Positions 22,683 to 60,921 of a stretch of DNA of 64,000 nt are shown piece by piece. The notes beneath the pieces were generated by a model, which saw nothing but the letters and a program-made list of their open reading frames with translations, was not told where the DNA came from and made no database searches. The stretch's first letter is position 1. Each line of letters begins with the position of its first letter. Origin of the DNA: a virus (taxonomy: Duplodnaviria > Heunggongvirae > Uroviricota > Caudoviricetes); the IMG/VR virus record IMGVR_UViG_2636416131_000001, positions 1 through 64,000 of that record; one strand, given 5' to 3'. A program made the translations under genes and the position numbers.

Positions 22683-25600
22683 CTATATTTTTCCGCCTAC
22701 GCCTTTAAACTTCTCAATAAACGAGACGATTTTCTGGAAAACTGCCTGTTTTTTCGTTTTATATTGCGGATTTAACGGACTAAGTTTTGGTAATGTTTCG
22801 TTTAATTCTGTGCCATTTTCGGTGGCATATTCGCGTTTTAAAGACGTGCGAATATAGCGTTTTGCTGCATCTTCATTGAGATTTTCTTCTTTTATCAATG
22901 CTTCTGCTTCACGTTGCTGTTCGCGTTGAGCAAACGTAAAGAATGCGTCAATGATGCTGGCTTTGTCCGGTAAATCATCCAGGTTCGTTTGCTGAATAAA
23001 ATCGACCACCAGGCCCTCTTTAGCACGGTTCCCTAGGCTTGAACGAATTAAGCGTTTGACCTCTTCGATCATTTCGCCCTTGCCTTTATTTTGTCTGTTG
23101 TGTTCGAAAATCAGTCCAAGGATATAATCCAGGTTTATTTCCTGAGACTTCAGCAAATCGACCTCAAAAACTACGTCATCCCAGTCAGTGGTTGATTTCT
23201 CTTTTTTCTCAGCTTCTTTCTCACGGCGCTGCCAGTCGCGAATATCGTTATAGGCAGAACGATAATCCTGAATCTTGCGATCAGCAGGGAGACGAATTGT
23301 TTGCAATTCAGCGAATTTTTCATCATCCACATAATGTTCTGCTTTGAATTTTTCTACCGCAACAGGATCGCTAAGATCGATTTGTTGCAGGGCTTTCAGC
23401 GTGGCAAATTCATCATAGTTTTGCAGGATGTTCTCGGCACGCAGGTATTCACCAAACAGTTTAACGAAGTCTTTCTTCTCTTTTTCACTTTCAATACTGG
23501 CAGGGTCAGGGAACCGTTGTTCCAGTTCTGAAACTACTGCCATAAAGCCGCGCTTAGCTTCACCAGTGGCAGCATCAGTAAAGCCTTCCATATACTCTGC
23601 ATAACTCTTTTCTAAAACCACATTTTTGGTGTTTTTGTCACCAAACAGCGTTATGGCATCAATAGTTGAGCGTTCCAGATCCCGGAAAGTGACGATATTA
23701 CCGAAGGTTTTAGTTGCATCATAAATACGGTTGGTGCGGGAAAATGCCTGCATCAAGCCGTGAAAACGCAGGTTTTTATCGACGAATAGCGTGTTCAATG
23801 TTGGAGCATCGAAGCCAGTTAAAAACATCCCCACGACAATTAACAGATCGATATCCTGATTTTTAATCCGTTGGGCTAAATCGCGATAGTAGTTCTGAAA
23901 ACCGTTACCGTCGGTGCTGAAGTTAGTTTTAAAATAGCTGTTATACTCACGAATTGCAGCGTCAAGAAACTCTTTAGCACTGCTGTCCATTGCACTGGTA
24001 TCAAAAGATTCATCGGAAATTTCACCAATGGCATTTTGTTCTTCATTAGCGGCAAAGGAGAAGATTGTCGCAACACGCAGTGGTTTATAGGTAGCAGATT
24101 TATTAGCTGCTTCCTCTTGTAACCGTTTAAACGTCGCGTAATAGGCTTTCGCGGCATCCACGCTGCTCACTGCCAACATAGCATTAAAACCTTTTGAGCC
24201 AGGGAAGGTACGGTGGGTTTTCTGGCGGAAATTATTCAGAATATATTGCGTGATTTCCTGAATACGCATGGGATGAAGAAACGCCTGCTGATTTTCAGCC
24301 GCACTCAGTTTTTTCTCGTCAGTTTCTGTCTCTAAAGACTTAAACTGTGGCCGCACATCGTTGTAGTCCACCTTGAATTTGAGCACTTTTTCGTCACGAA
24401 TCGCATCGGTAATTACATACGAATGCAATTCACGACCAAATACGCTGGCGGTTGTTTCTGAGCCTAAGGCGTTTTCCGGGAAAATAGGGGTGCCGGTAAA
24501 ACCAAACTGATAATAGCGTTTGAATTTCTTCTTCAGGTTTTTCTGCGCTTCTCCAAACTGGCTGCGGTGGCATTCATCAAATATAAACACCACTTGCTGA
24601 TTATATACAGGCAGGTCGCTTTCTGCTTTCATCAGGTTATTGAGTTTCTGAATAGTAGTGACGATAATTTTGTTATCGTCCTTATCCAGATTTCGTTTAA
24701 GGCCTGCGGTATTTTCCGAGCCGTTGACGCTGTCTGGCGAAAAACGCTGATATTCCTTCATGGTCTGGTAATCGAGGTCTTTCCTGTCGACCACAAAGAA
24801 GACTTTATCAATAAAGTCCAGCTCTGTTGCCAGACGCGCGGCTTTAAAGCTGGTGAGGGTTTTACCAGAACCGGTAGTGTGCCAGATATACCCACCGCTT
24901 TCCGGTTTTGACCAGTTCTTCGCTGTAAAGGAACTCTTAATTTTCCACAGAATGCGCTCGGTGGCGGCAATCTGGTACGGTCGCATCACCAGTAGCGTCT
25001 GACTACTGTCAAAAACGCTGTAGTTCACCAGAACATTCAGCAGAGTATGTTTCTGGAAAAAGGTAGCGGTAAAGTCTTTGAGGTCTTTAATCAGCGTGTT
25101 GTCTGATTTCGCCCAATTCATGGTGAAGTCAAAACTGTTTTTATCGCGCTTTGTGGTGTTGGCAAAATAACGGGTATCAGTGCCGTTGGAAATGACGAAC
25201 AGCTGCAGATACTTAAACAGGGAATTTTCGCTGTTAAAACTCTCTTTACTGTAACGATGTATCTGGTTGAAAGCCTCACGAATCGCCACCCCGCGTTTTT
25301 TTAGTTCGATTTGCACCAGCGGTAAACCATTAACCAGGATCGTGACGTCATAACGGTTAGCATGAGAACCCGTCTGTTCAAACTGCTGGATAATCTGCAC
25401 CTTATTGCGCATGAGATTCTTTTTATCTATCAAATAGATGTTCTCAAGTCGCCCGTCGTCAAAAATAAAGTCGCAGATATAGTCGATATGGATTTTACGG
25501 GTTTTATCCAGAATACCATCGCTGGGGTTGTCCAGATACTGCTCCGTGAAGCGCCGCCACTCGCTGTCATTAAACATCACACCATTGAGGCTCTGAAGCT

Positions 25601-25799
25601 GTTCCCGAACATTGGACAGCATTGCCGACTGTGATTTTACGGAAATAAATTCATAACCCTGATTCCGCAGGTCCTGAATCAGTTCACGTTCCAGGTCCGA
25701 TTCGCTCTGGTAGCTGTCGCTTGTTTGCTCAGCTTTGATGTACTTATCAAGGACGATAAAGTTATTGGATTCAGCAATGGTGTGTGTTTGATGAGTCAT
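22683..25799 (-). CDS. hsdR: type I restriction enzyme R subunit, EcoR124-like (type IC)
   Basis: 1038 aa; helicase motif I HTTGSGKT and DEAH-like FDECH; separate from hsdMS by a 122-nt gap; AT-rich. Confidence 0.9.
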
Positions 25800-25921
25800 A
25801 GCGCATCCTTTGTGCCGCCTGGCAAGAGCCGGAAGGGCGTTAAGAGTGACTTCCGGCGCGTAAAAAAATAGTCTATATACTGACCGGATGTTAAGGTGGT
25901 CCGGTCTGTAAAAATGCTCAA

Positions 25922-27070
25922 TTAATTACTGGCTGTTTCAGGTTTTGGGAAACTGAACAGTAAATCACGATAGTACTCGTATTGTTTCTGGCGCAACTCG
26001 ATTTCACGCGGGAGACCTTCGGTGATGGAGTTGGTCAGTGTGTCGAATTTATCGAGTATTGCGACGATACGAGCTTGCTCTTGTAAAGGGGGAACCAAAA
26101 CAATAGGAGCATTTAATATGTTATATGAAACAAAAGGCTGTGATGCACTATTAGATTTTGAACCGAAATCTTGTAAAAGTAATAAATAGTAGGCGTATTT
26201 TTGAAGAACTTCCTTCGATTTGTGCCTACAAATAACTCCGTTGTATGTAACAAAATGCTTACCTTGGCCCCAGTTAACGATTCCTGCGTAAGCACCTATA
26301 TGACCAATAACAGGCGAGTCTTCGCTGTTATATTTGTCATGGGAGCCTACAATCCCGTTGCTACCATAAACAGGATATTGCCCTCCAGATTTAGGAATTG
26401 TATTGCCTGTTCCATACTGAAAATCATAAATATCACCTATCCTCATTTCTCGAGTATTTTCCCTGCCCTCAAGATTCAGTAACTGGTCGCGATAGTAGTT
26501 GTACTGTTTTTTACGCATGTTAAGCTCAGCGGTAAGCTCAGCGGTAACTGCAGTAAATTTATCCAGAATCCGAACGATTTCAGACTGGATGGCAAGGGAT
26601 TTTTCCGGATTATCCGGGCAAGGGATTGGAACTTCAAACTTATCTGTATCAGGAGTTGCAATTTGTGGCATTTGCATTTTACCCCCAATTTTCTGGAAAT
26701 ATCCTTCATTTATTTTTAGGAAGTAATAAATATACTTTATGCTTATCGCATCATTATTTGAGTGATATGACCACATCTCATTTTTGTGAGAGAATGGTTT
26801 ATCGTAATACTCGAATTCGATAATACCTCTGGATTTAACAATGATCGATGGCTCTCTATTAATATCTTTCTCTGGAATATCTTTAAAGTCAACAAAGGCT
26901 ACTGTTTTTCCCCCTGCAAAAATTTTAAGCGGCGCATTATCTTTGTGAAGAGCTTTCATCTGCCCAGCGGTTATTTTTGTGCCTTTAGTTCGTTTAAGCA
27001 CTTTCTCTAGTGTTTTCCACTCAACCTTAACTCCATCCAGCAATTTTTCCAGATAACTCAACTCGCTCAT
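25922..27070 (-). CDS. hsdS: type I R-M specificity subunit with central TAEL x2 repeat
   Basis: Two target-recognition regions separated by conserved ...[27 protein letters not shown]...; start overlaps the hsdM stop (ATGA). Confidence 0.85.
26521..26544. repeat. 12-bp tandem repeat x2 (TAAGCTCAGCGG) encoding TAEL-TAEL in hsdS
   Basis: Direct tandem duplication read in sequence; encodes the spacer-length determinant known from EcoR124I/II. Confidence 0.7.
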
Positions 27071-28629
27071 TTCTGTACCTCGCAGCCTTCAATTTCAGCC
27101 ACAATCGCATCAATATCTTTGCGCAACTGGTCGATTTTGCTGACCGTGGTTTTCAGCTCTGCATTCAACTCAGCGATATCGATAATTTCGCGAGTATCTT
27201 TCACTTCAACATAGCTGCTCACCGACAGGTTATAGTCATTAGCAACAACAGTCTCAAACGCAACAGATTTCGCCAGATGAGCAACATCTTCCTTGCTGGC
27301 AAATACCTGCATAATTTTTTCTATATGGGCATCGGTCAGAATGTTGTTGTTAGTCTCTTTTTTGAACAGTTCGCTGGCATCAATAAACTGAACTTTGGTA
27401 TCCGTTTTATGTTTAGACAGCACCAGAATATTGACGGCAATGGTGGTGCCAAAGAACAGATTCGGTGCCAGTGAAATCACGGTTTCGACATAGTTATTGT
27501 CAACCAGATACTGACGGATTTTCTGCTCCGCGCCGCCACGGTAAAAAATGCCCGGGAAGCAGACAATCGCAGCACGACCTTTGGCAGAAAGATAGTTCAG
27601 CGCATGTAATACAAACGCAAAGTCAGCTTTGGATTTGGGGGCCAGAACGCCAGCCGGGGCAAAACGTTCATCGTTAATCAGCGTCGGGTCATCGCTGCCA
27701 ATCCATTTCACCGAATACGGCGGGTTAGAAACGATGGCATCAAACGGTTTTTCATCTCTGAAGTGCGGCTCAGTCAGCGTATTGCCCAGCTTGATATCAA
27801 ACTTGTCGTAGTTGATGTTGTGCAAAAACATGTTCATACGCGCCAGGTTATAGGTCGTATGGTTGATCTCCTGACCGAAAAAGCCTTCTTCGATGATGTG
27901 GTCATCGAACTGCTTTTTCGCCTGCAACAACAGCGAACCGGAACCTGCTGCCGGGTCGTAGATTTTGTTAACGTGGGTCTGGCCGTGCATTGCCAATTGT
28001 GCAATCAGCTTAGAGACGTGCTGCGGTGTAAAGAACTCGCCGCCTGACTTACCAGCATTCGCGGCATAGTTAGAAATCAGGAACTCATAGGCATCGCCGA
28101 ACAGGTCAATCTGATGTTCGTTGAAGTCACCAAGTTTTAACCCTTCAACCCCTTTCAGAACCGCAGCCAGGCGGGCATTTTTATCTTTAACGGTGTTACC
28201 CAGGCGGTTACTGGTGGTATCGAAATCAGCAAACAAACCTTTGATGTCAGCTTCTGAAGGATAACCGTAAGCAGAACTTTCGATAGCAACGAAGATGCTG
28301 TTTAAATCTGCGTTCAGTCTGTCATTGGTATTTGCTTTCGCCGCTACGTTGCAGAAAAGCTGACTGGGGTAGATGAAGTAGCCTTTAGTTTTGATGGCAT
28401 CGTCTTTAATGTCATCAGTAATTACGCTGTCATCCAGTTTCGCATAACAGATACTGTCATCACCGGCTTCAATATAGCTGGAAAAATTTTCGCTGATAAA
28501 ACGGTAGAAAAGTGCGCCCAGAACGTATTGCTTAAAATCCCATCCATCGACCGAACCCCTGACATCGTTAGCAATTTGCCAGATTTGACGATGAAGCTCT
28601 GCACGTTGTTGAATACTTGTCATTTTCAT
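27067..28629 (-). CDS. hsdM: type I R-M N6-adenine methyltransferase subunit, EcoR124-like
   Basis: 520 aa; SAM motif [10 protein letters not shown] and catalytic NPPY ([11 protein letters not shown]); N-terminus [25 protein letters not shown] matches my recollection of EcoR124 HsdM. Confidence 0.9.
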
Positions 28630-28753
28630 CCACTTATTTCAGGCTTATGTAATTGGCGGTGATTCTACAGCAACTTGGATGCTTTAGCAGTTCGGACATT
28701 AGGCAACGAATGACCTAATTAGAGCTTTTTGGAAAAGCGGTATTGTCGGTGCG

Positions 28754-28978
28754 ATGATAGCTATGTTTGGGTGCGCGATGGTGCAATACAATGACGGTGA
28801 AAAGGTAAGCATCCAGTCTGATGGCTGGTATGGGCTGGATAGCCTGCAAAAAACCGCAGATAAAGCCTGTCAGCAATATGGAAAGTCTAAAGCCGTATAT
28901 CAGCATAGCGCGAACGCTAATCCACATCTCGCGCCCGGCACGGGCGTTCAGAACACTATTTGGAAATGCGAACCATAA
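28754..28978 (+). CDS. hypothetical small protein, possible lipoprotein
   Basis: 74-aa ORF with AMFGC lipobox-like start; overlaps an antisense ORF; weak. Confidence 0.2.
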   Translation: MIAMFGCAMVQYNDGEKVSIQSDGWYGLDSLQKTADKACQQYGKSKAVYQHSANANPHLAPGTGVQNTIWKCEP

Positions 28979-29161
28979 CGCAGGTTGACTTTTTACATCT
29001 TGGGCCGAATACTGATTCCGCGCTAAGTTGTTTGTGCGGAAGTGACACTGTGGAGCTTAGAAATAGTAAATACTGGTGGGCAACAAATTGAGCCTTCACA
29101 CGCTCACCAGCACACACAAAAAATGGTTAAACAGCAAGGGAATTAATATCTCATCGCGACA

Positions 29162-29299
29162 TTAAATAAGCCAGCGCACGCCTCTGTTTATCACTGACTT
29201 GAAAAACCATATCAGAACCACGATGAAGACAATCGCCAGCACTTGGCTAAGAACAGGCGCATTTAAAAATGCACTTAGAAACTGAAAAAATACAATCAT
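29162..29299 (-). CDS. 45-codon hydrophobic peptide
   Basis: AGGA SD; MIVFFQFLSAFLNAPVLSQVLAIVFIVVLIWFFKSVINRGVRWLI; below the track cutoff. Confidence 0.25.
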   Translation of the reverse strand: MIVFFQFLSAFLNAPVLSQVLAIVFIVVLIWFFKSVINRGVRWLI

Positions 29300-29767
29300 C
29301 AGGGTAATCCTCGTCTAATGTAAAGCTGTGTGCTCTCACGTTGACGTAGAAACCCAACCTCTATATAGTTGGATTCGGTGAAAGAAAGTCGTTAACGTGA
29401 ACTTACGGCACATGTTTTCGGTATAAAAATCAGGGAACTGTGAATTCCTTGATGTAGTTGGGGCCTGTAATGCAGGCCCTATCTATTAATGTCATGATTA
29501 CATCTCAAATTTTCTCCTTATCATTATTATTTAATAAAATTCAATTAATATAATATCCATTTCCTGTGTGTGCAAACACAGTATGAGGAAAATGGCCCCG
29601 TTGCAAGTGCATAACTTTGTGGATAACTCTGAAGGCGAATTTACATTTCGGCGCACCGCAAGCCAGATAAGCTGTGCGCAAAAAGCAATGGGGTGAGAAA
29701 AAAACTTTGAAGATATTGCGGCGACTAAATAATAGCCGTTATTCAATTATTCTGGATGGGATTTAAT

Positions 29768-30019
29768 ATGAACGAATGGAACATAGCAGCCAAAAGCCAG
29801 GAAGAAAGGAATAAAGTTAACGTTGACCTGGCTGCCAGGGGGGTTGCCTACAAAGAGCGATTGAACATACCCGTCATAGCGGAACAGGTAGCCCGTGAGC
29901 AACCTGAGAACCTGCGCACCTATTTCATGGAACGGCTACGGCACTACCGGCAGTTAAGCCTCCTGCTGCCAAAAGGAAACGATCCGGTATATCAGAAAGA
30001 AGATATAGCCAAAAAATAA
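29768..30019 (+). CDS. hot: DNA polymerase III theta-subunit homolog
   Basis: [42 protein letters not shown] aligns with E. coli HolE from recollection; 83 aa from the internal ATG. Confidence 0.8.
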
Positions 30020-30079
30020 CGCGCCACCAGGCGAGCGCAAAGCATCGCGCTATTGCACACTTCAAGCATCTTTAATGTA

Positions 30080-30099
30080 TACTGTATGGATAAACAGTA
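30080..30099. promoter_or_regulatory. LexA (SOS) box upstream of humD
   Basis: TACTGTATGGATAAACAGTA matches the CTGT-N8-ACAG consensus, 19 nt before the humD ATG. Confidence 0.7.
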
Positions 30100-30117
30100 C
30101 TCTGAGGTGAAAACGCT

Positions 30118-30507
30118 ATGGGCTTCCCTTCTCCTGCGGCGGATTATGCTGAGAGCCGTATTTCTCTTGATCAGCAGATAATTAGACATCCTTCAGCGAC
30201 CTACTTCATGAGGGCAGCTGATAGTCATCATCGTGAGGGAATATTACAGGGTGCATTGCTGGTGGTTGATTCCTCACTTACCCCGGTTGATGGTTCTCTG
30301 CTTGTATGCGCTCTGGATGGGGAATATCGCGTAAAAAGATACCGGAAGTATCCACGTCAGCATCTGGAGGATTTAAGAACCGGTAAGAAGGAAGCATTGC
30401 CAAAGGATGACGATGGATGCACGGGGAGTAATGCTGTGTTTGGTGTGATCACTCATGTCATTAATGATGCCCGAAGTGGGGAATTTGATGATTGTCCGGT
30501 GATTTAA
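30118..30507 (+). CDS. humD: UmuD'-like S24 peptidase-family protein
   Basis: 129-aa protein in the P1 hot-humD-phd-doc position; LexA box upstream. Confidence 0.75.
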   Translation: MGFPSPAADYAESRISLDQQIIRHPSATYFMRAADSHHREGILQGALLVVDSSLTPVDGSLLVCALDGEYRVKRYRKYPRQHLEDLRTGKKEALPKDDDGCTGSNAVFGVITHVINDARSGEFDDCPVI

Positions 30508-30579
30508 GCTGCAAAGTGCTGGTGCTTTATGCCTGTGAAGTTTATAATTGTGTACACATAACGAGTACACGAGGTGTTT

Positions 30580-30801
30580 ATGCAATCCATTAACTTCCGT
30601 ACCGCGCGCGGCAACCTTTCTGAAGTGCTCAACAATGTTGAAGCCGGGGAAGAGGTTGAAATCACCCGCAGAGGCCGTAAGCCAGCAGTAATTGTCAGCA
30701 AGGCTACTTTCGAAGCCTACAAAAAAGCGGCGCTGGATGCTGAATTTGCATCCCTGTTTGACACCCTGGACTCCACCAACAAGGAACTGGTTAACCGATA
30801 A
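30580..30801 (+). CDS. phd: Phd antitoxin
   Basis: [32 protein letters not shown]... matches P1 Phd as I recall it; 73 aa. Confidence 0.9.
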
Positions 30802-31181
30802 TGAGGCATATATCACCGGAAGAACTTATTGCGCTTCATGATGCGAATATAAACCGCTACGGCGGCCTGCCGGGAATGTCAGATCCGGGTAGGGCAGAGG
30901 CCATTATCGGGAGAGTTCAGGCCAGAGTTGCCTACGAAGAGATCACCGACCTTTTCGAAGTCTCCGCCACCTACCTGGTGGCTACAGCGAGAGGGCATAT
31001 ATTCAATGATGCCAATAAGCGTACCGCGCTAAACAGTGCGCTGCTATTTCTACGCCGTAACGGGGTGCAGGTATTTGATTCACCAGAACTGGCAGACCTT
31101 ACCGTAGGGGCTGCGACCGGAGAGATATCTGTATCTTCTGTCGCCGACACGTTACGTAGATTGTATGGTTCTGCGGAGTAG
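30801..31181 (+). CDS. doc: Doc toxin (Fic-fold kinase)
   Basis: 126 aa; TAATG overlap with phd; matches P1 Doc from recollection. Confidence 0.9.
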
Positions 31182-31185
31182 ATTA

Positions 31186-31365
31186 ATGGCACGTAAATAC
31201 AACAAGTTGTCCCGTGAAGCGTTAAAGATGCTTCTTGATGGCGTGAGTCGCCGCGAGGTAAAGCAATACCTGGTTGGTAAGCAAGTTGGTGTCAGGACTG
31301 CTATTGCTGTGTTATGCCGTCAGGAAATGGTTGTGCTTAAACAGAGAATGCCGGGCAGCAGATAA
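31186..31365 (+). CDS. pdcA: small protein downstream of doc
   Basis: ATG 5 nt after doc stop; named by position. Confidence 0.4.
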   Translation: MARKYNKLSREALKMLLDGVSRREVKQYLVGKQVGVRTAIAVLCRQEMVVLKQRMPGSR

Positions 31366-31392
31366 AGCCCAATCAGTGATGAAAGGTGTGAT

Positions 31393-32436
31393 GTGAAAGC
31401 CGTAATTACTCCCTTTGTACAAAAAGAGCTTGGCGTCGCCACATTCAAAGTGGATCAGGAAGTCAGAAAGCTGGTGGAGGCTGGCCGTAAATTTATTATG
31501 GAGCCGGTGCCGCGTGAGTTAATCGAGCACATGGACGACGGCCTCGTTGTTTCCGAGCAAACTATGGCAACAAATGAGGCGTTGCAGCCGTTTTTTAACA
31601 GCGATGAACTGTTTCGCCGTATTGGTGGGATTGACTCGCTGGTGGCGTGGTTGCGCAGGAAAGAGGGGCAATGCCAGGCCGCAGATCGTAGTTGGTGTGA
31701 CAACCATATTGTCCACGCTGAACGAGACAATAGCGCGGTGTTGTTGTGCTGGCATCACGATAACCATTACCGGATGCGTGGTTTTAATGAGCTGAAAGAA
31801 ACGCTGCATAATAATCGCGTTAACTGGATACTGGATGTCGCCCGTCAGGAAATGGGGCTTTCAGATGGCCATGATTTAAGTATTCAGGAACTGTGCTGGT
31901 GGGCTTTCATGCGCAACATGATGCACCTGATGCCGGAAGAAGTTTGCCGTATATCAATAAATAAGATGAAAGCCGCAACGCAGGATAGCGGACCTCTGAA
32001 AGAGGCGGATATTCGCCCGTATGACGATCGCGCTACAGCATATGTTCAGATGATGGAAGAACGCGCCGCGCCGATGCGTGCAAAAGTATGCCCTGTGGAT
32101 GTTGACTCCGACCCTGGCATGGCGCATTTCAAAATACCAAAACTGCAATCGCTAAAATTACCTGAGTACATGGACTTTGTTGCTTCCCGTCCATGCTGTG
32201 GGTGTGGAGCGGCGGGAGCTGGCGCTCACATTACGCCTTATATCGTTCGTCATAGTCGATTATGCGCGCATGACATTTACGCAATTCCTCTGTGCCAGTC
32301 ATGCCAGCGTGATATTGAGCGTGACCGCGATAATTGGGAGAAGACGCACGGTAGGCTGGCGATGCATCAACGATTGTTCTTTGATTACGCGCTTGGAGTC
32401 GGCGCTATCACAAGTCACTCGTCGAGCGTTAGATAA
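31393..32436 (+). CDS. pdcB: hypothetical Cys/His-rich protein downstream of doc
   Basis: GTG start after GAAAGGTG SD; 347 aa; named by position. Confidence 0.5.
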
Positions 32437-39467: not shown

Positions 39468-40499
39468 ATGTCCAATTTACTGACCGTACACCAAAATTTG
39501 CCTGCATTACCGGTCGATGCAACGAGTGATGAGGTTCGCAAGAACCTGATGGACATGTTCAGGGATCGCCAGGCGTTTTCTGAGCATACCTGGAAAATGC
39601 TTCTGTCCGTTTGCCGGTCGTGGGCGGCATGGTGCAAGTTGAATAACCGGAAATGGTTTCCCGCAGAACCTGAAGATGTTCGCGATTATCTTCTATATCT
39701 TCAGGCGCGCGGTCTGGCAGTAAAAACTATCCAGCAACATTTGGGCCAGCTAAATATGCTTCATCGTCGGTCCGGGCTGCCACGACCAAGTGACAGCAAT
39801 GCTGTTTCACTGGTCATGCGACGGATCCGAAAAGAAAACGTTGATGCCGGTGAGCGTGCAAAACAGGCATTGGCGTTCGAACGCACTGATTTCGACCAGG
39901 TTCGTTCACTCATGGAAAATAGCGATCGCTGCCAGGATATACGTAATCTGGCATTTCTTGGGATTGCTTATAATACCCTGCTACGTATAGCAGAAATTGC
40001 CAGGATCAGGGTTAAAGATATCTCACGTACTGACGGTGGGAGAATGTTAATCCATATTGGCAGAACGAAAACGCTGGTTAGCGCCGCAGGTGTAGAGAAG
40101 GCACTTAGCCTGGGGGTAACTAAACTGGTCGAGCGATGGATTTCTGTCTCTGGTGTAGCTGATGATCCTAATAACTACCTGTTTTGCCGGGTCAGAAAAA
40201 ATGGTGTTGCCGCGCCATCTGCCACCAGCCAGCTATCAACTCGCGCCCTGGAAGGGATTTTTGAAGCAACTCATCGATTGATTTACGGCGCTAAGGATGA
40301 CTCTGGTCAGAGATACCTGGCCTGGTCTGGACACAGTGCCCGTGTCGGAGCCGCGCGAGATATGGCCCGCGCTGGAGTTTCAATACCGGAGATCATGCAA
40401 GCTGGTGGCTGGACCAATGTAAATATTGTCATGAACTATATCCGTAACCTGGATAGTGAAACAGGGGCAATGGTGCGCCTGCTGGAAGATGGCGATTAG
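39468..40499 (+). CDS. cre: Cre tyrosine recombinase
   Basis: 343 aa beginning MSNLLTVHQNLPALPVDATSDEVRKNLMDMFRDRQAFSEHTWKMLLSVCRSWAAWCKLNNRKWFPAEPEDVRDYLLYLQARGLAVKTIQQHLGQLNMLHRRSGLPRPSDSNAVSLVMRRIRKENVDAGERAKQALAFERTDFDQVRSLMENSDRCQDIRNLAFLGIAYNTLLRIAEIARIRVKDISRTDGGRMLIHIGRTKTLVS; matches P1 Cre as I recall it. Confidence 0.97.
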   Translation: MSNLLTVHQNLPALPVDATSDEVRKNLMDMFRDRQAFSEHTWKMLLSVCRSWAAWCKLNNRKWFPAEPEDVRDYLLYLQARGLAVKTIQQHLGQLNMLHRRSGLPRPSDSNAVSLVMRRIRKENVDAGERAKQALAFERTDFDQVRSLMENSDRCQDIRNLAFLGIAYNTLLRIAEIARIRVKDISRTDGGRMLIHIGRTKTLVSAAGVEKALSLGVTKLVERWISVSGVADDPNNYLFCRVRKNGVAAPSATSQLSTRALEGIFEATHRLIYGAKDDSGQRYLAWSGHSARVGAARDMARAGVSIPEIMQAGGWTNVNIVMNYIRNLDSETGAMVRLLEDGD

Positions 40500-40516
40500 C
40501 CATTAACGCGTAAATG

Positions 40517-40533
40517 ATTGCTCTAATTCTTTG
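40517..40533 (+). promoter_or_regulatory. degenerate C1 operator-like box (13/17) upstream of cra
   Basis: ATTGCTCTAATTCTTTG. Confidence 0.35.
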
Positions 40534-40549
40534 ATATTTATGGTGGCAT

Positions 40550-40861
40550 ATGAGAAAGGATTTCAACATCGACGGAAAATATGTAGTGCTGTCTGTAAGC
40601 ACTAATATTCTGTCACCATCTGTCATTGTCACCGTAAAGTTGAGCGATAGGATGCCTGATATCGACTCGATATCTGTTGCGTTCCCCGTTAAAAGCATGC
40701 GGAGTGCTGAACATTTTGTGATGAATGCAACGGAGGAGGAAGCGCGGCGCGGGCTTACTAGAGTGATGGGGGAATTTGGCGAACTCCTGGGTAAGGTAAA
40801 CAATGCCCTTTCAATCAGTTCAGCAAGGTCCAAAGCGTTAACAGCTTCCATGATGAAATAA
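40550..40861 (+). CDS. cra: cre-associated protein
   Basis: 103-aa ORF directly after cre; by position. Confidence 0.5.
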   Translation: MRKDFNIDGKYVVLSVSTNILSPSVIVTVKLSDRMPDIDSISVAFPVKSMRSAEHFVMNATEEEARRGLTRVMGEFGELLGKVNNALSISSARSKALTASMMK

Positions 40862-40993
40862 AAAAAAGCCTGGCAAGGAGCCAGGCTGCACAAAAGAGCG
40901 GGTTTGTATTCCGCATCCAATCAATCAAGAAGGAGTATAGCACACAGGTACTGAAGTGAAAAAATGTGATTCGCGATAAACAAAATATCTGCC

Positions 40994-41020
40994 ATTGCTC
41001 TAATTGATTGCTATAATTTA
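40994..41020 (+). promoter_or_regulatory. C1 operator pair with embedded -10 (ref promoter-operator)
   Basis: ATTGCTCTAATTGATTGCTATAATTTAG. Confidence 0.5.
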
Positions 41021-41077
41021 GCCGCAGTTTTTGTCAACTACGAAGACGTTGCCATTACTTCACTCCTTGACATCATT

Positions 41078-41103
41078 GGCGGCCATTAGGCCGCCTTTTT
41101 TTT
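41078..41103 (+). terminator. hairpin plus T8 in the ref leader (terminator/attenuator-like)
   Basis: GGCGGCC-ATTA-GGCCGCC followed by TTTTTTTT, 5 nt before the ref ATG. Confidence 0.5.
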
Positions 41104-41108
41104 GCCAT

Positions 41109-41669
41109 ATGAAAACAATCGAACAAAAACTTGAACAGCGCCGCGAGTGGCAGAAGGCAGCCAGAGAACGAGCGATCGCTCGGCAACGGGAAAAGTTGGC
41201 TGACCCCGCCTGGCGAGAATCGCAATATCAGAAAATGCGGGATTCTATCGACCGCCGTATCGCTAAACAGAAAGAGCGCCCACCAGCCAGCAAAACGCGG
41301 AAAAGTGCGGTAAAAATAAAATCTCGTGGCTTGAAGGGGCGAACACCGACGGCGGAGGAACGGACCATCGCCAATGCTCTTGGCACTCTCCCCTGCATTG
41401 CCTGCTACATGCATGGAGTAATATCTGAAGAGGTGTCTCTGCACCATATCTCCGGTCGTACCGCGCCGGGTTGTCACAAAAAGCAATTGCCCCTTTGCAG
41501 ATGGCACCACCAGCATGCAGCACCGGCTGAAGTAAGAGAAAAATACCCTTGGCTGGTCCCCGTTCATGCCGATGGTGTGGTTGGAGGCAAGAAAGAATTC
41601 ACCTTGCTGAACAAGTCAGAGATGGAATTGCTGGCTGACGCCTATGAGATGGCAAACATCATGCACTAA
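41109..41669 (+). CDS. ref: recombination enhancement function, HNH endonuclease
   Basis: Internal ATG gives 186 aa (the P1 Ref length as I recall); Cys/His cluster CIACYMHG...LHHISG...CHKK...CRWHH. Confidence 0.75.
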   Translation: MKTIEQKLEQRREWQKAARERAIARQREKLADPAWRESQYQKMRDSIDRRIAKQKERPPASKTRKSAVKIKSRGLKGRTPTAEERTIANALGTLPCIACYMHGVISEEVSLHHISGRTAPGCHKKQLPLCRWHHQHAAPAEVREKYPWLVPVHADGVVGGKKEFTLLNKSEMELLADAYEMANIMH

Positions 41670-41735
41670 TAAATATATTATTTTTAATCTTAAATGATTG
41701 ACAACTGACAAGTGACTTGAGTCAGAATCATCACA

Positions 41736-41798
41736 CGCCCGGTACGGATGGATCCCTTTTCAAATATTCCATGGACGGCACAGTCTGAGTACCGGGCG
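41736..41798. repeat. 10-bp perfect inverted repeat with 43-nt spacer between ref and mat
   Basis: CGCCCGGTAC ... GTACCGGGCG. Confidence 0.5.
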
Positions 41799-41818
41799 CT
41801 ACCTTCAGTTGTATTGCT

Positions 41819-41846
41819 AAGCCGCCGCTGGTGGCTTTTCTTTTTT
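41819..41846 (+). terminator. rho-independent terminator upstream of mat
   Basis: AAGCCGCC-GCTG-GTGGCTT hairpin followed by TTCTTTTTT. Confidence 0.5.
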
Positions 41847-41857
41847 GTAGGGGCGCT

Positions 41858-42499
41858 ATGGATAAGAAAATATGCGTTGTTTCAATGAGCGTCGGCAAAC
41901 CGGCGTCAATGACTGCTGCATGGATCAACAATGAGCTGATAATGGCTGAGCGGACCAGCTACCCTGAACGCCGCCGCGATATGGAACTCCAGCTGCTGCG
42001 CGAATTGCGAGAAAAAGAGGAAAAGGGTTTTATCGTGCTGGTGGAAGAGGAAAACAGCTTTATTACCGGTCGAGTTGGCCAGCGTGTAAGGTTGCGTGAT
42101 CCCTTCATGAACGGCAGACCGGTACTGATTGAAGCAATGCAGATTTACAAGGAATTGGAACGCCAGAAAGCGATCAAGTTACCGCGCAAGGAATCCGGCA
42201 AATACATCCTTCACCAAAGCATCTTCGATTCCGAACACGATAAAAAAGGCGATGAATTTTTCAACATCAACTGGAGCGAAATAACGACAGAACATGTTCT
42301 GACGTTACTATGTTGCTTTGCGACGGAATACAACAACGTTGCCAGCGCCGACTACATCAGGGCAATGGCTGGAGAAGTTGAGGCCCATCAGGAACCATCA
42401 TTACTAAGTCCCCTGATTAACATAATTCGCGGAACTCAAACACTAACGCAAAAACAAGTGCCGCAAGGAGAATTAACAGGTAAACAGAACTATTTATAA
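41858..42499 (+). CDS. mat: maturation control protein
   Basis: ATG after AGGGG SD (the track GTG start lies inside the terminator hairpin); named by position after ref. Confidence 0.5.
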   Translation: MDKKICVVSMSVGKPASMTAAWINNELIMAERTSYPERRRDMELQLLRELREKEEKGFIVLVEEENSFITGRVGQRVRLRDPFMNGRPVLIEAMQIYKELERQKAIKLPRKESGKYILHQSIFDSEHDKKGDEFFNINWSEITTEHVLTLLCCFATEYNNVASADYIRAMAGEVEAHQEPSLLSPLINIIRGTQTLTQKQVPQGELTGKQNYL

Positions 42500-42611
42500 T
42501 AGTTACGTTAGGTAACATTATGGGTATGTTTCATTTTCATACCCATTGATTTCTAGCTTGATTTGTTATTATATGTAACAACACATTAATCATTTGAACT
42601 GGATGTTAGTA

Positions 42612-43733
42612 ATGGGCAGTGAAGTATATCAAAGCCAAAAATGCGAACTTAAATATTCGAAATCTCAAATAGAAAAAGCAGCCAGAAAAATTAGACATGG
42701 TTGTGAGGGCGCAGAGCGAGAAGAAGCAATTAAAATGATTCAAAATTTCCGCGAGCTTCATTTATATCCATTGATGCTAATGAAAAATCATCTTGATAGG
42801 GCTGCAAAAAAAGTTGATAAAGAGAATAAGATTATTGTTGCAAGACGCCTAAAAAGACTTAGCACAATAATTGATAAACTGGAGCGTCCAAGTCTTGACG
42901 GCGGCGCAACAAATAATGCAATAGCCCTTACTAGAATGCAGGATATTGGCGGATGTAGAGCTATAGTTAGAAACATCGAACAACTAAAGAAACTAAAAGA
43001 CCGACTAGTTAAAAGTCGCTCCAAGCATAAAATCTTAAAGGAATATGACTATTTAACTCCAAAGCCAAGCGGATATAGTGGCATTCACCTTGCATATAGT
43101 TGTTTTGATGAAGAAAACGGTAACAATCCGTGGAGTAAAACTAAAATCGAAGTACAACTAAGAACAGAACTCCAACATGCTTGGGCAACAAGTCTGGAGA
43201 TAATAGATACACTTGAAAATATTAAGCTGAAAACTTCTAATGAAGGTCACCCTGAGTGGAGAAGATTTTTTTATCTTTCTGGATGCCTAGTTGCTCATGA
43301 TGAAGGTGCCTGTATTCTTGATGATGAAACCATCAAAAATTATCAAACAGAGCTTAAAACATTGGAGGAGGCTTTATCTGTTCGCTCAAAATTAAGTACA
43401 TATACATTTGCAATGAAGCTGACATCAGATGCAAACCTAAAGAAAAGCCTGCCCAAAAACCATAATGGATTCTTTTTGGTGAGGATGAGAAACGCCATAA
43501 CAAAAAATGGCAAGGATACTGGAAAGTTTCTTGTTTCTGTGAAACCTTTTAGGAAAAAAGAATCGGAACAAGCCCTCCAGGAACTTAATAAGGATGATGC
43601 GGATCCTGAAGTATTAATTGCGGTGCTGCTTGCCACTAACAACATTAAATCTCTTAAAAAGGCTTATCCTAACTATTTTGGGTCAACAAATCAGTTCGGG
43701 AGATTCCTTAGCAGACACATTGATACTGTGTAA
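42612..43733 (+). CDS. RelA/SpoT-domain toxSAS fused toxin-antitoxin, CapRel-like
   Basis: Synthetase-fold motifs RMQDIGGCRAIV and KIEVQLRTELQHAWATSLE; 373 aa from ATG with GGA SD; AT-rich relative to backbone; occupies the P1 res/mod position. Confidence 0.6.
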   Translation: MGSEVYQSQKCELKYSKSQIEKAARKIRHGCEGAEREEAIKMIQNFRELHLYPLMLMKNHLDRAAKKVDKENKIIVARRLKRLSTIIDKLERPSLDGGATNNAIALTRMQDIGGCRAIVRNIEQLKKLKDRLVKSRSKHKILKEYDYLTPKPSGYSGIHLAYSCFDEENGNNPWSKTKIEVQLRTELQHAWATSLEIIDTLENIKLKTSNEGHPEWRRFFYLSGCLVAHDEGACILDDETIKNYQTELKTLEEALSVRSKLSTYTFAMKLTSDANLKKSLPKNHNGFFLVRMRNAITKNGKDTGKFLVSVKPFRKKESEQALQELNKDDADPEVLIAVLLATNNIKSLKKAYPNYFGSTNQFGRFLSRHIDTV

Positions 43734-43737
43734 ATTC

Positions 43738-43762
43738 CTATGCCTGGCTTAGCCAGGCATAG
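43738..43762. terminator. 11-bp perfect hairpin between convergent genes
   Basis: CTATGCCTGGC-TTA-GCCAGGCATAG. Confidence 0.45.
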
Positions 43763-43770
43763 CCAAAGAT

Positions 43771-44019
43771 TTAATCAGCATTCAGGAGCAATGCGTTATC
43801 TATGATGATCTGCTCCCATTCTTCGAATGCCCGGTCGCGGACGCCCTGGGGAACGCTGTTAGTTTTGAAATCGACGACCGTACGCCATTTCCCGTCCGGA
43901 CGGTACATGCGCAGAGCTTTACTTCCCCCTTCCCTGCGCACCTCAACGTTATGCTTATCAGCAAACTCTTGTAATGCTCGTAGCGTCCCATGCTTTACTG
44001 TGTAGTATCGCTTTTTCAA
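43771..44019 (-). CDS. lxc: Lxc (Bof) modulator of C1 repression
   Basis: 82 aa, last gene of the darB-ulx-lxc string; length and position as I recall for P1. Confidence 0.65.
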   Translation of the reverse strand: MKKRYYTVKHGTLRALQEFADKHNVEVRREGGSKALRMYRPDGKWRTVVDFKTNSVPQGVRDRAFEEWEQIIIDNALLLNAD

Positions 44020-44456
44020 GTTTTCTCTCCAGCCTGTGCCAAGGCTTCAACTTCCAAATCGTAAGACTCAAACTCATAGTCCTGGTCGTCAACTTCTTCA
44101 GGCACTGGCAGTAAATGCCAGGCTGAGTATATCTGACCATTATCAAAACGCTCCTGGCTGTAGAGCGTCGCGGCTATGAGTGTTAGCGCCGGGCGGTCAT
44201 AACGGTAAATTTTGCGAACGTCACGGTCAACGAGACGACCGAAATTACCATAACCGCGCTCCAGTAATAATTTTTTAATTTCCGGCCAGTATGGACCATA
44301 GCTGCGGTACAGGCGGGGATTTTTCAGTAATCGCCCGCGTAGCCCTGACAGGAAGAAATCAACGTATTCGTCTTCTGTCTTTCCTAACAACGCTGTACGG
44401 AGTACCGCCTCAAGATATGTTTTATTCGGTTTTATTGTATCAGATAGTGTGGCCAT
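44016..44456 (-). CDS. ulx: hypothetical protein upstream of lxc
   Basis: 146 aa; ATGA overlap with lxc. Confidence 0.55.
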   Translation of the reverse strand: MATLSDTIKPNKTYLEAVLRTALLGKTEDEYVDFFLSGLRGRLLKNPRLYRSYGPYWPEIKKLLLERGYGNFGRLVDRDVRKIYRYDRPALTLIAATLYSQERFDNGQIYSAWHLLPVPEEVDDQDYEFESYDLEVEALAQAGEKT

Positions 44457-44489
44457 ATTATGCGACGCCCGGCGAACCGGGCGCTCCTG

Positions 44490-47400
44490 TTATGCGTATT
44501 GTTGGATGACGGCCAGAACGTCCGCCACGTTGTGTTTTGTCTCGATAATCCACCAGTTACCCGGGAAATCGCTGTTCTTCGCCTTCGCTGGCAGCCAGCG
44601 AGCGCCGAATTTCGCCTTGATTGCGTCTTTCGCACGGAAAAGAACGCCTTTCATGCCTGAGGCTTCCTGAAGCCCAAATACCTCGCCAGCGGCGAATTTT
44701 GGTGCGTACATCATCTTCAGGTCGGCGGTGGATACGCGATAATTCAGACCAAGAGACTGAGCTATGCTGGTGGCATCACCCTGTATTGATGATAACTCTT
44801 CTTGTTTCTCGTTTCTGGCGGCAATCTCTTCCTCCGTGATGTTGCCAAGGGCCAGGTTTATCCGATCAGCGTCGGCCTGTTTCTCTTCATCGGTGCGCCC
44901 GGCAAGAACCGTGTTAATTCTCTGCAATATCTCCACATGATTCTTGCGCATGCTGAGCAATTCCGGCGTAACCTCGTTAAGATCCACCAGCCCAAGGATG
45001 GCAAGGTCGGAAAACATTGATACCAGGTTGTAGGTCATGCGATAGCTGAGTTGACCATAGGCTGATGGCAACTTCACCGCATCCATTTGATAGGCATCCA
45101 TAAATTTAGAGCCGTCGTTTACGACATCCGCTATTGCAGGTGTGATTTTCCCTGTGGTGGCGGCCTCCCTGATTGCTGTTACCCACGATTGAGTCAGCGC
45201 GGCGACTGCATGATTCAGATTGGCTTCCCGTTCTGCTGCGATGCGCGCGCTTGCTGCGTCCATTGCCTGCTTGATCTCGGCTTTATTGCTGTAAATGCCA
45301 ATGGTGCCAAACTGTGCTGTGGTGATCTCATAATCTGACGCCCGGAACTCATTGGTACCGAAAATGGCATTGGTGACTTCAAGTTCAGAATCCCCGTTAC
45401 GAGTAGCCCCCTGGCTTGTTTTCTCCGGCATTCTGGCGATCGCATCCGCTATTTTCTCCTGAATTGCTTCAGGGGATAGCGTATCTCCGTATGACGCGAT
45501 TACATCGCCATAATTGGAGCCAAACAGTTCAACCAGGAATGCTTCTGCCGAACGGATCTGGCGGTTATTCCCTTCCGACATCATACCAAGCACCCATTTT
45601 GCAATTGACGACTTCAGCGCGCCGTCACGGCGATCCGGGTAAACCGCATGCTTCAGTGGGTCCGTATAGGTACCAACAAAATCAATGCTATAGCCTGACT
45701 CTGTAGTCTGAACGCCGTATGAGTCAGTGATTTTGATCATGCCGCGCTGCTGGAAACGGTAGAAATCGTCACAGGAAACGATGTCGTTAATCCCGGCGAT
45801 GGAGACGCCACCACTGATTTTCTGCATAACAGCATCTTCATCGGGAGTTACATCAACCTGTTTATCCAGCGTCTTCACATCCCAGTTACCCGATTTGGTG
45901 CCTTTGAAGGTAAAGATGATCTCCACGTCTGCGCGCTGGCTGTCGAAGTCCAGCGACTTAATGCGAACGATATCACCGGCACAATCATAGTATTGGCCTA
46001 CACGCCATGAGCGATCGCCGATAACAAGGAACTCATTCGCATGGTTAACCAGATCAGGATCAACATCCAGAATGCCTTTATTTATTGCATCCTCCACCAG
46101 CGGGCGCAGGCGTTTGATATCCGTCGCGGCCTTCTGAGTACGGTTCAATAATTTCTCATAGCGGGAGATGGCCTGAGAGATATTAGCCTTGCGCTGAATG
46201 GCGCTTTTCAACGACGCGCGATACTGTGCTAACAACATACGGTCTGTGTGATGGACGCTACCCCAGCGGGCTTTCCAGTCTGCGTTATCAGCTGCTTTGG
46301 CCATTACCGCCTGTTTGAATTTGGCGACGTCGGCGGTGGTCTTTTCAAGTTCCGCTTTGCTTCGCTCCAATTCAGCGGTAAGTACCTCCACATCCTCACC
46401 AGCTGCGTGCTGCGCCTTGATGTAGTTCTGAAGGTCGATAGTAGCCTGTTCTTTCTGGCGAGCGCGTTTCGCAGCTTTCGCCTTATCCATTTGAACCTGC
46501 ATCATTGCCAGACGTTCGCCGTCATCCTTCGCGGTATACATCTGCATTTCGATCATATCGTTGGCGTCGGCGTTCTCCATTTCTGACTTATCTGAACGGA
46601 GGATATCGGAGATCCAGCCTGCTTTACGCTTCAGCGTCTTCAGTCGGTATTCATCGAAAGACCCCTTGCCGCAGTAGTAGTGAACGCGAACGCTTGCACG
46701 GTTGGAGCCAACTCGGGCACCGCGACCGTTTCGTTGCGCAATACTGGCTGGAGTCCATGGCAACGTCAGATGATGGATGTCAGTCGTTCCTCGATGCAGG
46801 TTGATACCCACCTCTGCCTTTTTGTTGCAGATGATGATCGGAGTCCGGCCCTCCTGGAAGTCGGCTGCAATCTTTTCCAGACCGCCCAACGACATTTCAT
46901 TTTGCTGCGCGATATAGGCGTCATACAGAGCCATTTGCTCGTTGTATTTCGCTATCTGTGCATCTGTTGGTTCATCCGGTAACTCTTTCGGCGGTTTAAC
47001 CGCTTTCAGTTTCTTACCGGTTTTACCTGCCTCGGCAACCGTCTGAGCATTCAGTATCCCCACCTTTGAAGGTTCAAGGTTAAGAGCATTGCAGATAATG
47101 CGCTTGAGCTTCTGGTGCTGCGTTTTTTCATCGGTGAAGATGATTTGCTTACCTTCCGGGAAAAACTCCTTCAGCGTGGCAATCAGCTTCGCGTATTTGG
47201 GCGTAACGGGGTGAGTTACGGTCTGTTCGTCAATGCCAAACCTGGCCAGGCGCTTATTCACTTCCTGCTCGAACGCTTCCGGAACCTGCAACTGAATAAA
47301 CTCGCCCTTATCTATCAGGGAGTATTGCGATTGCTGCGTGATTGAATCATCACTGTCGTCGTCTTCGCTGGTGGCTTGTTTAGGCAAACTGTCCGCCAGC

Positions 47401-60555: not shown

Positions 60556-60921
60556 TTATGCTGCCTCTTTAATGTTGGCGGCTATCCATGCCGCCGTGTG
60601 CTGTTTAACCTGGTCCAGGTCGATGTATGTGCCAACATATTGACTCAAATCCTGCAAGGTACCGATAAATGCATCGGTGCTCTGATCGACGAATTTATCA
60701 GCCAGGAAATCAGCAACCAGTTTTGGCACACCATCATGTACCGAAGGTTGTTTTTCCTCGCCACTACTGCCGCCGGACACACCGTACCCCATCTGTTGCA
60801 TGATCTGGTCAATTTCATCGCTGATATCCAGCAACTCCATGCCACTCGCGGTAGCCGCTTTGGACATCAAAGCATCCAACTTATCGCTGAGATCCATTAA
60901 CTCAATAGCTGATAGTGTCAT
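60556..60921 (-). CDS. ddrA: DdrA-like protein
   Basis: 121 aa; ATGA overlap with the darA stop. Confidence 0.55.
   Translation of the reverse strand: MTLSAIELMDLSDKLDALMSKAATASGMELLDISDEIDQIMQQMGYGVSGGSSGEEKQPSVHDGVPKLVADFLADKFVDQSTDAFIGTLQDLSQYVGTYIDLDQVKQHTAAWIAANIKEAA

Follow-up and report, generated by a model that had tools for sequence, protein, structure and literature searches.

The 64,000-nucleotide (nt) stretch of viral DNA analysed here (the window; positions 1 to 64,000 of IMG/VR record IMGVR_UViG_2636416131_000001, Caudoviricetes) carries the hsdM, hsdS and hsdR genes of a type I restriction-modification (R-M) system within the backbone of a P1-like phage-plasmid. Judged by its sequence, the block is a bona fide type IC system of the EcoR124 family with a specificity differing from that of EcoR124. 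We propose that it is complete, very probably active and an exchangeable accessory cassette of the phage-plasmid, activity being predicted from the integrity of the genes and their similarity to EcoR124. Assignment to this family follows from the near-identity of HsdM and HsdR to the EcoR124 subunits, in conjunction with the type IC conserved regions of HsdS. Such families are delimited by similarity of sequence, by cross-reacting antibodies and by complementation between subunits.

All three open reading frames (ORFs; Table 1) are uninterrupted and lie on the minus strand in the order hsdM-hsdS-hsdR, with a 4-nt overlap (ATGA) between hsdM and hsdS and a 122-nt spacing between hsdS and hsdR. 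A preliminary description of this DNA had reported this arrangement, including the gap, the lengths of the three products, an NPPY motif in HsdM, a double TAEL repeat in HsdS and helicase motifs in HsdR, and each of these details is reproduced exactly. HsdM scores 652 bits against TIGR00497 (cut-off 243), also matches PF02384 and PF12161, and contains DPAAGSG at residue 225 and NPPY at 302-305. HsdR scores 766 bits against TIGR00348 and contains the domains PF22679 (T1R_D3-like), PF18766 (SWI2_SNF2) and PF04313 (HSDR_N), as well as a C-terminal EcoR124_C domain (PF12008; residues 728-1031, E 1.6e-71) that covers profile positions 1-260 of 260. Its nuclease residues (D151, E165 and K167, with QIHRY at 179) and motor motifs (GSGKT at 310, DECH at 408, TGTP at 435 and QAFSR at 684) are intact. 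The Methylase_S model matches HsdS over two stretches, and PADLOC labels the three genes REase_I, Specificity_I and MTase_I.

Table 1. Positions of the hsd genes, the cassette borders and neighbouring features in the window.
Feature	Position (nt)	Strand	Details
hsdM	27067-28629	minus	520-aa ORF; N6-adenine methyltransferase subunit
hsdS	25922-27070	minus	382-aa ORF; specificity subunit
hsdR	22683-25799	minus	1038-aa ORF; helicase-nuclease (restriction) subunit
HsdS TRD1	~26630-27013	minus	residues ~20-147; differs from EcoR124
HsdS TRD2	~26081-26476	minus	residues ~199-330; differs from EcoR124
TAEL-TAEL repeat	26522-26545	minus	HsdS residues 176-183; two tandem 12-nt repeats
hsdS-hsdR intergenic region	25800-25921	minus	122 nt; presumed site of separate hsdR promoter
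hsdM leader	28630-28716	minus	87 nt; conserved; presumed hsdM-hsdS promoter region; right end of cassette
hsdR downstream tail	22608-22682	minus	75 nt; part of cassette; hairpin with 10-bp stem at 22639-22667
P1-homologous DNA, pap to junction	22416-22607	plus	Op88, PpmgT positions, terminator, 28-aa ORF
C1 operator Op88/OpmgT	22416-22432		ATTGCTCTAATAAATCT; P1 annotation; conserved
Intrinsic terminator	22465-22489	minus only	followed by TTTTTATTTT; strong; terminator scan
28-aa hydrophobic ORF	22517-22603		MNTAFKIIMAAIYFWLFSITFGSIVAHG; conserved; in DNA common to P1
Segment homologous neither to P1 nor to cassette	28717-29104	plus	388 bp; part of backbone variant upstream of hot in other phage-plasmids
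74-aa ORF	28754-28978	plus	phrog_7757 (unknown function), E 2e-54, full length
upfM/N/O-like region and hot	29105-30019	plus	P1 homology resumes, ~81% to P1 85929-86815
hot	29756-30019	plus	DNA polymerase III theta homologue; PF06440, NF008207
RelA/SpoT-domain gene	42594-43733	plus	379 aa; PF04607 E 3e-13; PADLOC candidate PDC-S33 E 5e-87
darB	44490-51257		2255 aa
darA	60918-62837		639 aa
hsdS variants of p1506-2, p2017.15.03CC and pTB212 (names and accessions not paired)	NZ_LC511659.1 extract 3001-4161; NZ_CP059290.1 extract 6001-7149; NZ_CP033252.1 extract 201-1388		

One of the nearest named relatives is the type IC prototype EcoR124I/EcoR124II of plasmids R124 and R124/3, which has the same gene order. 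HsdM aligns over its full length with EcoR124 M (PDB 7bst_D) with 5 differences in 520 residues (~99% identity), and residues 1-1038 of HsdR align with EcoR124 HsdR (PDB 2w00_A) at 2277 bits and ~98% identity, including EcoR124_C, with ~17 substitutions counted in ~970 residues of the printed alignment. The classification as EcoR124-like type IC in the preliminary description is thereby borne out. From the 98-99% identity of the M and R subunits and the identical HsdS conserved regions, it is very likely that the subunits would exchange with, and complement, those of EcoR124I and EcoDXXI in vivo. The block had also been called AT-rich, which holds to a modest degree, with a G+C content of 43.6% compared to 48.1% for the window and the lowest value in hsdS (38.9%).

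Type IC HsdS proteins consist of a conserved N-terminus, a centre with two to three TAEL repeats, a conserved C-terminus and two variable target recognition domains (TRDs) (PMC3874165). In the window's HsdS, the first 20 residues, the central region and the last 50 residues are near-identical to EcoR124 S (PDB 7bst_A), and two TAEL repeats are present as in EcoR124I, whereas the TRDs are unrelated or weakly related to those of 7bst_A. The same conserved blocks are near-identical in four other type IC S alleles, again with variable TRDs, and the gaps of the BLAST alignment between the window's hsdS and CP057172 fall at 26058-26481 and 26629-27017. As both TRDs differ from those of EcoR124, the recognition sequence is predicted to be other than GAA(N6)RTCG, which is among the known type IC targets together with GAA(N7)RTCG, TCA(N7)RTTC and CCA(N7)RTGC (PMC12707154 Table 1). 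Targets of this family are bipartite and asymmetric, the methylated adenines being 7 or 8 bp apart. The number of TAEL repeats serves as a ruler for the spacer, two specifying N6 and three N7 (PMC3874165), and by analogy the two repeats found here would be expected to give an N6 spacer.

Comparison of five hsdS alleles from this locus, which display 40-46% overall identity and have only the conserved regions in common, demonstrates how the specificity gene varies. The window's allele, with two TAEL repeats, occurs in p1506-2 and pMCR-1-P3 at 99.4% nucleotide identity, the best match found, and in one E. coli chromosome (strain J2, NZ_CP195980.1 1201356-1202504) at 98.3%. Its TRD pair is combined with three TAEL repeats in p2017.15.03CC and recurs at 96% amino-acid identity in Klebsiella IncFIB plasmids, while pTB212 has the same TRD2, a different TRD1 and three TAEL repeats. 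More broadly, fragments of the hsdS query, either conserved regions or single TRDs, have matches in 1309 of the 5426 complete E. coli genomes searched, at 892 places on chromosomes and 668 on plasmids. A literature search for RefSeq accessions of the window's and related S alleles found nothing. Compared at the sequence level, the two- and three-TAEL forms of the window's TRD pair appear as the natural counterpart of the laboratory switch between EcoR124I and EcoR124II, and the TRD combination of pTB212 as the natural equivalent of TRD-swap hybrids. TRD swapping together with gain and loss of TAEL repeats, as at this locus, is textbook behaviour of type IC S genes.

The extent of the cassette was defined by BLAST against the P1 reference (NC_005856), in combination with alignments to hsd loci elsewhere and to P1-like plasmids that have no hsd genes. 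Window positions 20300-22607 correspond to P1 82177-84482 at 98% identity, and P1 homology ends after ...GCGCATGGGTAAGGGG, placing the left junction at 22607/22608; beyond this point P1 continues with pmgT and the window with the 75-nt hsdR tail. The hsd-less P1-like plasmids stop matching the window at the same base, 22607. On the other side, the sequence held in common with hsd loci found elsewhere extends no further than 28716-28728, with divergence after ...ATGACCT. The conserved cassette is consequently 22608-28716 (6109 bp), its right end located 87 nt upstream of the hsdM start. P1 homology is regained at 29105-30004 (P1 85929-86815, 81% identity) and 30069-31500 (P1 87534-88966, 95%). 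Relative to P1, the segment replaced is pmgT-pmgU-pmgV (P1 84483-85928) and not the whole interval between pap and hot. The preliminary description, which placed the block between pap and hot in place of small pmg/upl genes of P1, was right that canonical P1 lacks it at this position. Our comparison with P1 shows that pmgT/U/V lie there and that the upfM/N/O-like region is retained. The borders it had suggested, near 22440 and 29750, miss the true positions by ~170 bp at the left end and by ~650-1030 bp at the right, where the cassette ends at 28716 and P1 homology resumes after 29104.

Flanking genes of the cassette are pmgS and pap on the left and hot and humD on the right. The 74-aa ORF of the intervening 388-bp segment has a phrog_7757 homologue just upstream of hot in pIso00270_02, which carries ead/Ea22-like and DUF551 genes instead of hsd. 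A 70-aa minus-strand ORF (28715-28927) was considered as a possible regulator and rejected because it overlaps this plus-strand ORF with its full-length phrog_7757 match. Further to the right lxr is missing: 64 bp at 30005-30068 replace 718 bp of P1 (NC_005856 86816-87533) that hold most of the gene, so hot and humD (30118-30507) are almost adjacent. CP057172 and related plasmids have two other minus-strand genes at the lxr position.

How the cassette is exchanged can be narrowed down from its ends. A search of 22000-30200 for direct and inverted repeats revealed only short chance matches, none at 22608 or 28716, and no insertion sequence (IS) elements were detected in the same interval. Insertion in the manner of a transposon or an integron was rejected on these grounds, and recombination in the conserved flanks is likelier than transposition, since end repeats and IS elements are both lacking. 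Rfam at gathering thresholds reported no structured RNAs in 20000-32000.

The position of the cassette in P1-related DNA is already known, representing a classic, published type IC context that is not peculiar to the window. The P1 GenBank record annotates three relevant homologies: P1 84263-84482 matches DNA downstream of the EcoDXXI hsd locus at 96% identity, P1 84399-84482 matches DNA downstream of hsdR on R124/3 at 98%, and P1 87969-88647 (phd-doc) matches DNA upstream of the EcoDXXI hsd locus at 98%. Window position 22607 equals P1 84482, i.e. the annotated end of the EcoDXXI and R124/3 homology, and the downstream breakpoint of EcoDXXI (pDXX1) is identical to that of the window. Tyndall et al. 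(1997, Mol Microbiol 23:729) are reported to have described P1 DNA on the flanks of type IC hsd loci, with P1 homology setting in at one common point downstream of hsdR and with a junction to phd-doc upstream of hsdM, the P1 flank in R124 reportedly being a short remnant truncated by IS1. In our alignments, R124-type loci match the window from 22524, leaving an 84-bp P1 remnant (22524-22607) downstream of hsdR that is also seen in many IncF-type plasmids and in some chromosomes, whereas the window has a complete P1-like phage-plasmid backbone as its P1 flank.

In agreement with the P1-flanked type IC loci EcoDXXI and EcoprrI, the hsd genes of the window lie between P1 DNA of the pap side and that of the humD/phd-doc side. 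EcoprrI differs in carrying the anticodon nuclease gene prrC, which is absent in the window. In the pDXX1-type arrangement hsdM abuts phd-doc (P1 87969 onward), whereas the phrog_7757 gene, the upfMNO-like region, hot and humD intervene in the window. Two types of right junction can accordingly be distinguished: hsdM abuts phd-doc in p1506-2, pD72-mcr1, p2017.15.03CC and pMCR_SCKP-LL83, and is followed by the phrog_7757/hot/humD module in the window, CP057172 and IncFIB plasmids of ~110 kb. Four published P1/P7-like elements with an unnamed type I R-M system, pMCR_SCKP-LL83, pMCR-1-P3 (NZ_KX518745), phi456 and vB_EcoM-673R5, share the M-S-R-pap-pmgS order and position with the window but have the phd-doc type of right junction. 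The gene table published for pMCR_SCKP-LL83 (PMC5786510) runs from subunit M and subunit S through 'EcoR124II R protein' to the 3'-phosphatase (pap) and pmgS, and doc is found at the opposite end. The records of phi456 and vB_EcoM-673R5, which carry the block next to pap, were retrieved from the phage collection, and phi456 is described as a spontaneously produced phage (PMC10967188).

Some part of the whole region matched 1772 plasmids in PLSDB, 24 of them covering at least 80%. Among the complete E. coli genomes, a 361-bp probe of the left junction was covered to at least 80% in 221 and pap was full-length in 567, and from this ratio hsd occupies the site in roughly four of ten P1-like elements. 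The whole block had no match among the phage, plasmid and complete E. coli records searched, and none of them combined the window's S allele with the hot-side junction; pD72-mcr1, with a 100% match at the left junction, differs in its S allele and has phd-doc at the right junction. In a survey of 77 P1-like phage-plasmids, pmgT-humD is one of eight highly variable regions (PMC9603915), and R-M systems are singled out among the genes that phage-plasmids and plasmids exchange (PMC10879196).

Near-identical type IC cassettes were also observed in non-mobilisable IncFIB plasmids of ~108-110 kb, namely NZ_CP079763.1 of Klebsiella pneumoniae and NZ_CP082122.1 of E. coli, where they adjoin TerB/tellurite-colicin-resistance and DUF3927 genes. 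A DUF262 protein is encoded next to hsdM in the Klebsiella plasmid. In NZ_CP082122.1 the right flank is phrog_7757-hot-humD as in the window, and the left flank is non-P1 DNA starting at the hsdR stop codon.

We propose that the system operates as follows. HsdS, its two TRDs kept apart by a coiled coil with two TAEL repeats, would bind two HsdM subunits to form an M2S methyltransferase, which would methylate one adenine per strand of a bipartite target. HsdR, presumably produced from its own transcription unit, would then join M2S to yield R1M2S and subsequently R2M2S. On an unmethylated target, the complex is expected to pull in DNA along with ATP hydrolysis and to cut at a distance. Unmodified phages and plasmids that enter a lysogen would be restricted, while the DNA of the element itself and of its host would be marked. 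Establishment in a new host is likely tolerated through the cleavage-incompetent R1 intermediate, in agreement with the assembly-based restriction alleviation that lets type IC enzymes enter naive hosts (PMC12707154). Recombination in the conserved flanks may pass the cassette between P1-like and other plasmids, and its specificity diversifies through TRD exchange and the gain or loss of TAEL repeats.

Several observations weigh against such an active system. The ~17 HsdR substitutions relative to EcoR124 may bear on activity. A PDB search for the half-sites of the window's S allele returned EcoR124 S, which has other TRDs, and a weak TRD2 relative (7eew_A, E 7e-10), and provided no usable specificity. 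Promoter-like sites amount to 20 in the whole region compared to 14.6 +/- 3.6 in shuffled sequence, the matches being weak (9/12). The weakness of these matches would be compatible with a silent or decaying passenger, i.e. intact frames with no expression or no functional complex, and decay does occur at the locus, as related plasmids have, for example, IS1203, ISApl1, ISKpn26 or IS91 in or beside hsd. We nevertheless deem a passenger of this kind very improbable. The three ORFs are uninterrupted, M and S are coupled through ATGA, all motifs are present, the subunits are 98-99% identical to those of the experimentally active EcoR124, and the leader and intergenic sequences show conservation across hundreds of further loci.

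Alternatively, the principal role of the hsd genes may be that of a methyltransferase or of a selfish, addiction-like stabilising module that reinforces phd-doc, rather than that of a barrier to viruses and plasmids. Such a role would fit the many relatives in which hsdM directly abuts phd-doc (p1506-2, pD72-mcr1 and p2017.15.03CC), and R-M systems have been viewed as poison-antidote elements that phage-plasmids exchange (PMC10879196). However, hot and humD separate hsd from phd-doc in the window, and the full-length hsdR, ~98% conserved with intact nuclease and motor motifs, argues for selection on restriction. Type I systems are moreover not known for strong post-segregational killing. Type IC enzymes are also tuned against killing during establishment and damage (PMC12707154). 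As hsdR and the regulatory regions are intact and highly conserved, both alternatives are less likely than a complete, very probably active R-M system, and we judge the stabilising role improbable.

Expression of the type IC system that we favour presumably relies on two promoters. EcoR124 has a two-promoter organisation, with hsdR as its own transcription unit. From this precedent and the 122-nt gap we infer a separate hsdR promoter in the window, where the consensus scan of the gap yielded a weak 9/12 match at 25894-25865. A literature search brought up no confirmation that hsdR and hsdM of EcoR124 have promoters of their own. At the other end, the hsdR transcript is probably ended by the intrinsic terminator at 22465-22489, which belongs to DNA that canonical P1 shares. 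Across the part of P1 inspected, no minus-strand gene to the right of this terminator is closer than lxr, at a distance of ~2.5 kb.

The DNA downstream of hsdR also hints at a speculative connection to the prophage switch. There, Op88 and the positions of the PpmgT promoters have been retained and face the hsdR 3' end in antisense, and the terminator acts on minus-strand transcripts only. It is conceivable, if unlikely, that restriction is wired to induction on this basis: inactivation of C1 would release convergent transcription from PpmgT and lower the amount of HsdR, so that replicating phage DNA would be spared while transiently under-methylated. As a corollary, a P1 terminator without a close minus-strand gene would fit an hsd-bearing ancestor.

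Other defence and methylation genes are distributed over the window. The darB and darA genes are present, as stated in the preliminary description, which had placed the Dar antirestriction genes alongside the R-M system. P1 itself likewise carries a prophage-plasmid-borne R-M system, EcoP1I, which provides lysogenic-conversion immunity to foreign DNA but is of type III (res-mod) and occupies another locus, between mat and IS1/lxc. From cre (39468-40499) to darB there is no ORF of at least 400 aa and none of res or mod size, so the canonical site lacks EcoP1I, and the 379-aa RelA/SpoT-domain gene sits at the P1 res-mod position instead, between ref/mat and lxc/darB (within 40500-44490). A 1095-aa ORF at 3512-6799 on the plus strand displays strong matches to the phage DNA methyltransferase families phrog_116 and phrog_56; it is presumably a P1 Dmt-like double methyltransferase and would represent a second source of DNA methylation in the element.

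In conclusion, the block can be annotated as a type IC (EcoR124-family) hsdMSR cassette located in variable region 8, which is already known from P1-like phage-plasmids. It exemplifies how temperate phage-plasmids carry classical R-M systems between plasmids, phages and chromosomes, how TRD swapping and the gain and loss of TAEL repeats diversify specificity in nature, and how an element can rely on a type IC system rather than on the type III system of P1. Knowledge of the recognition motif would help to predict which DNA is excluded by a lysogen, which is relevant to the transfer of relatives bearing mcr-1 or extended-spectrum beta-lactamase (ESBL) genes.

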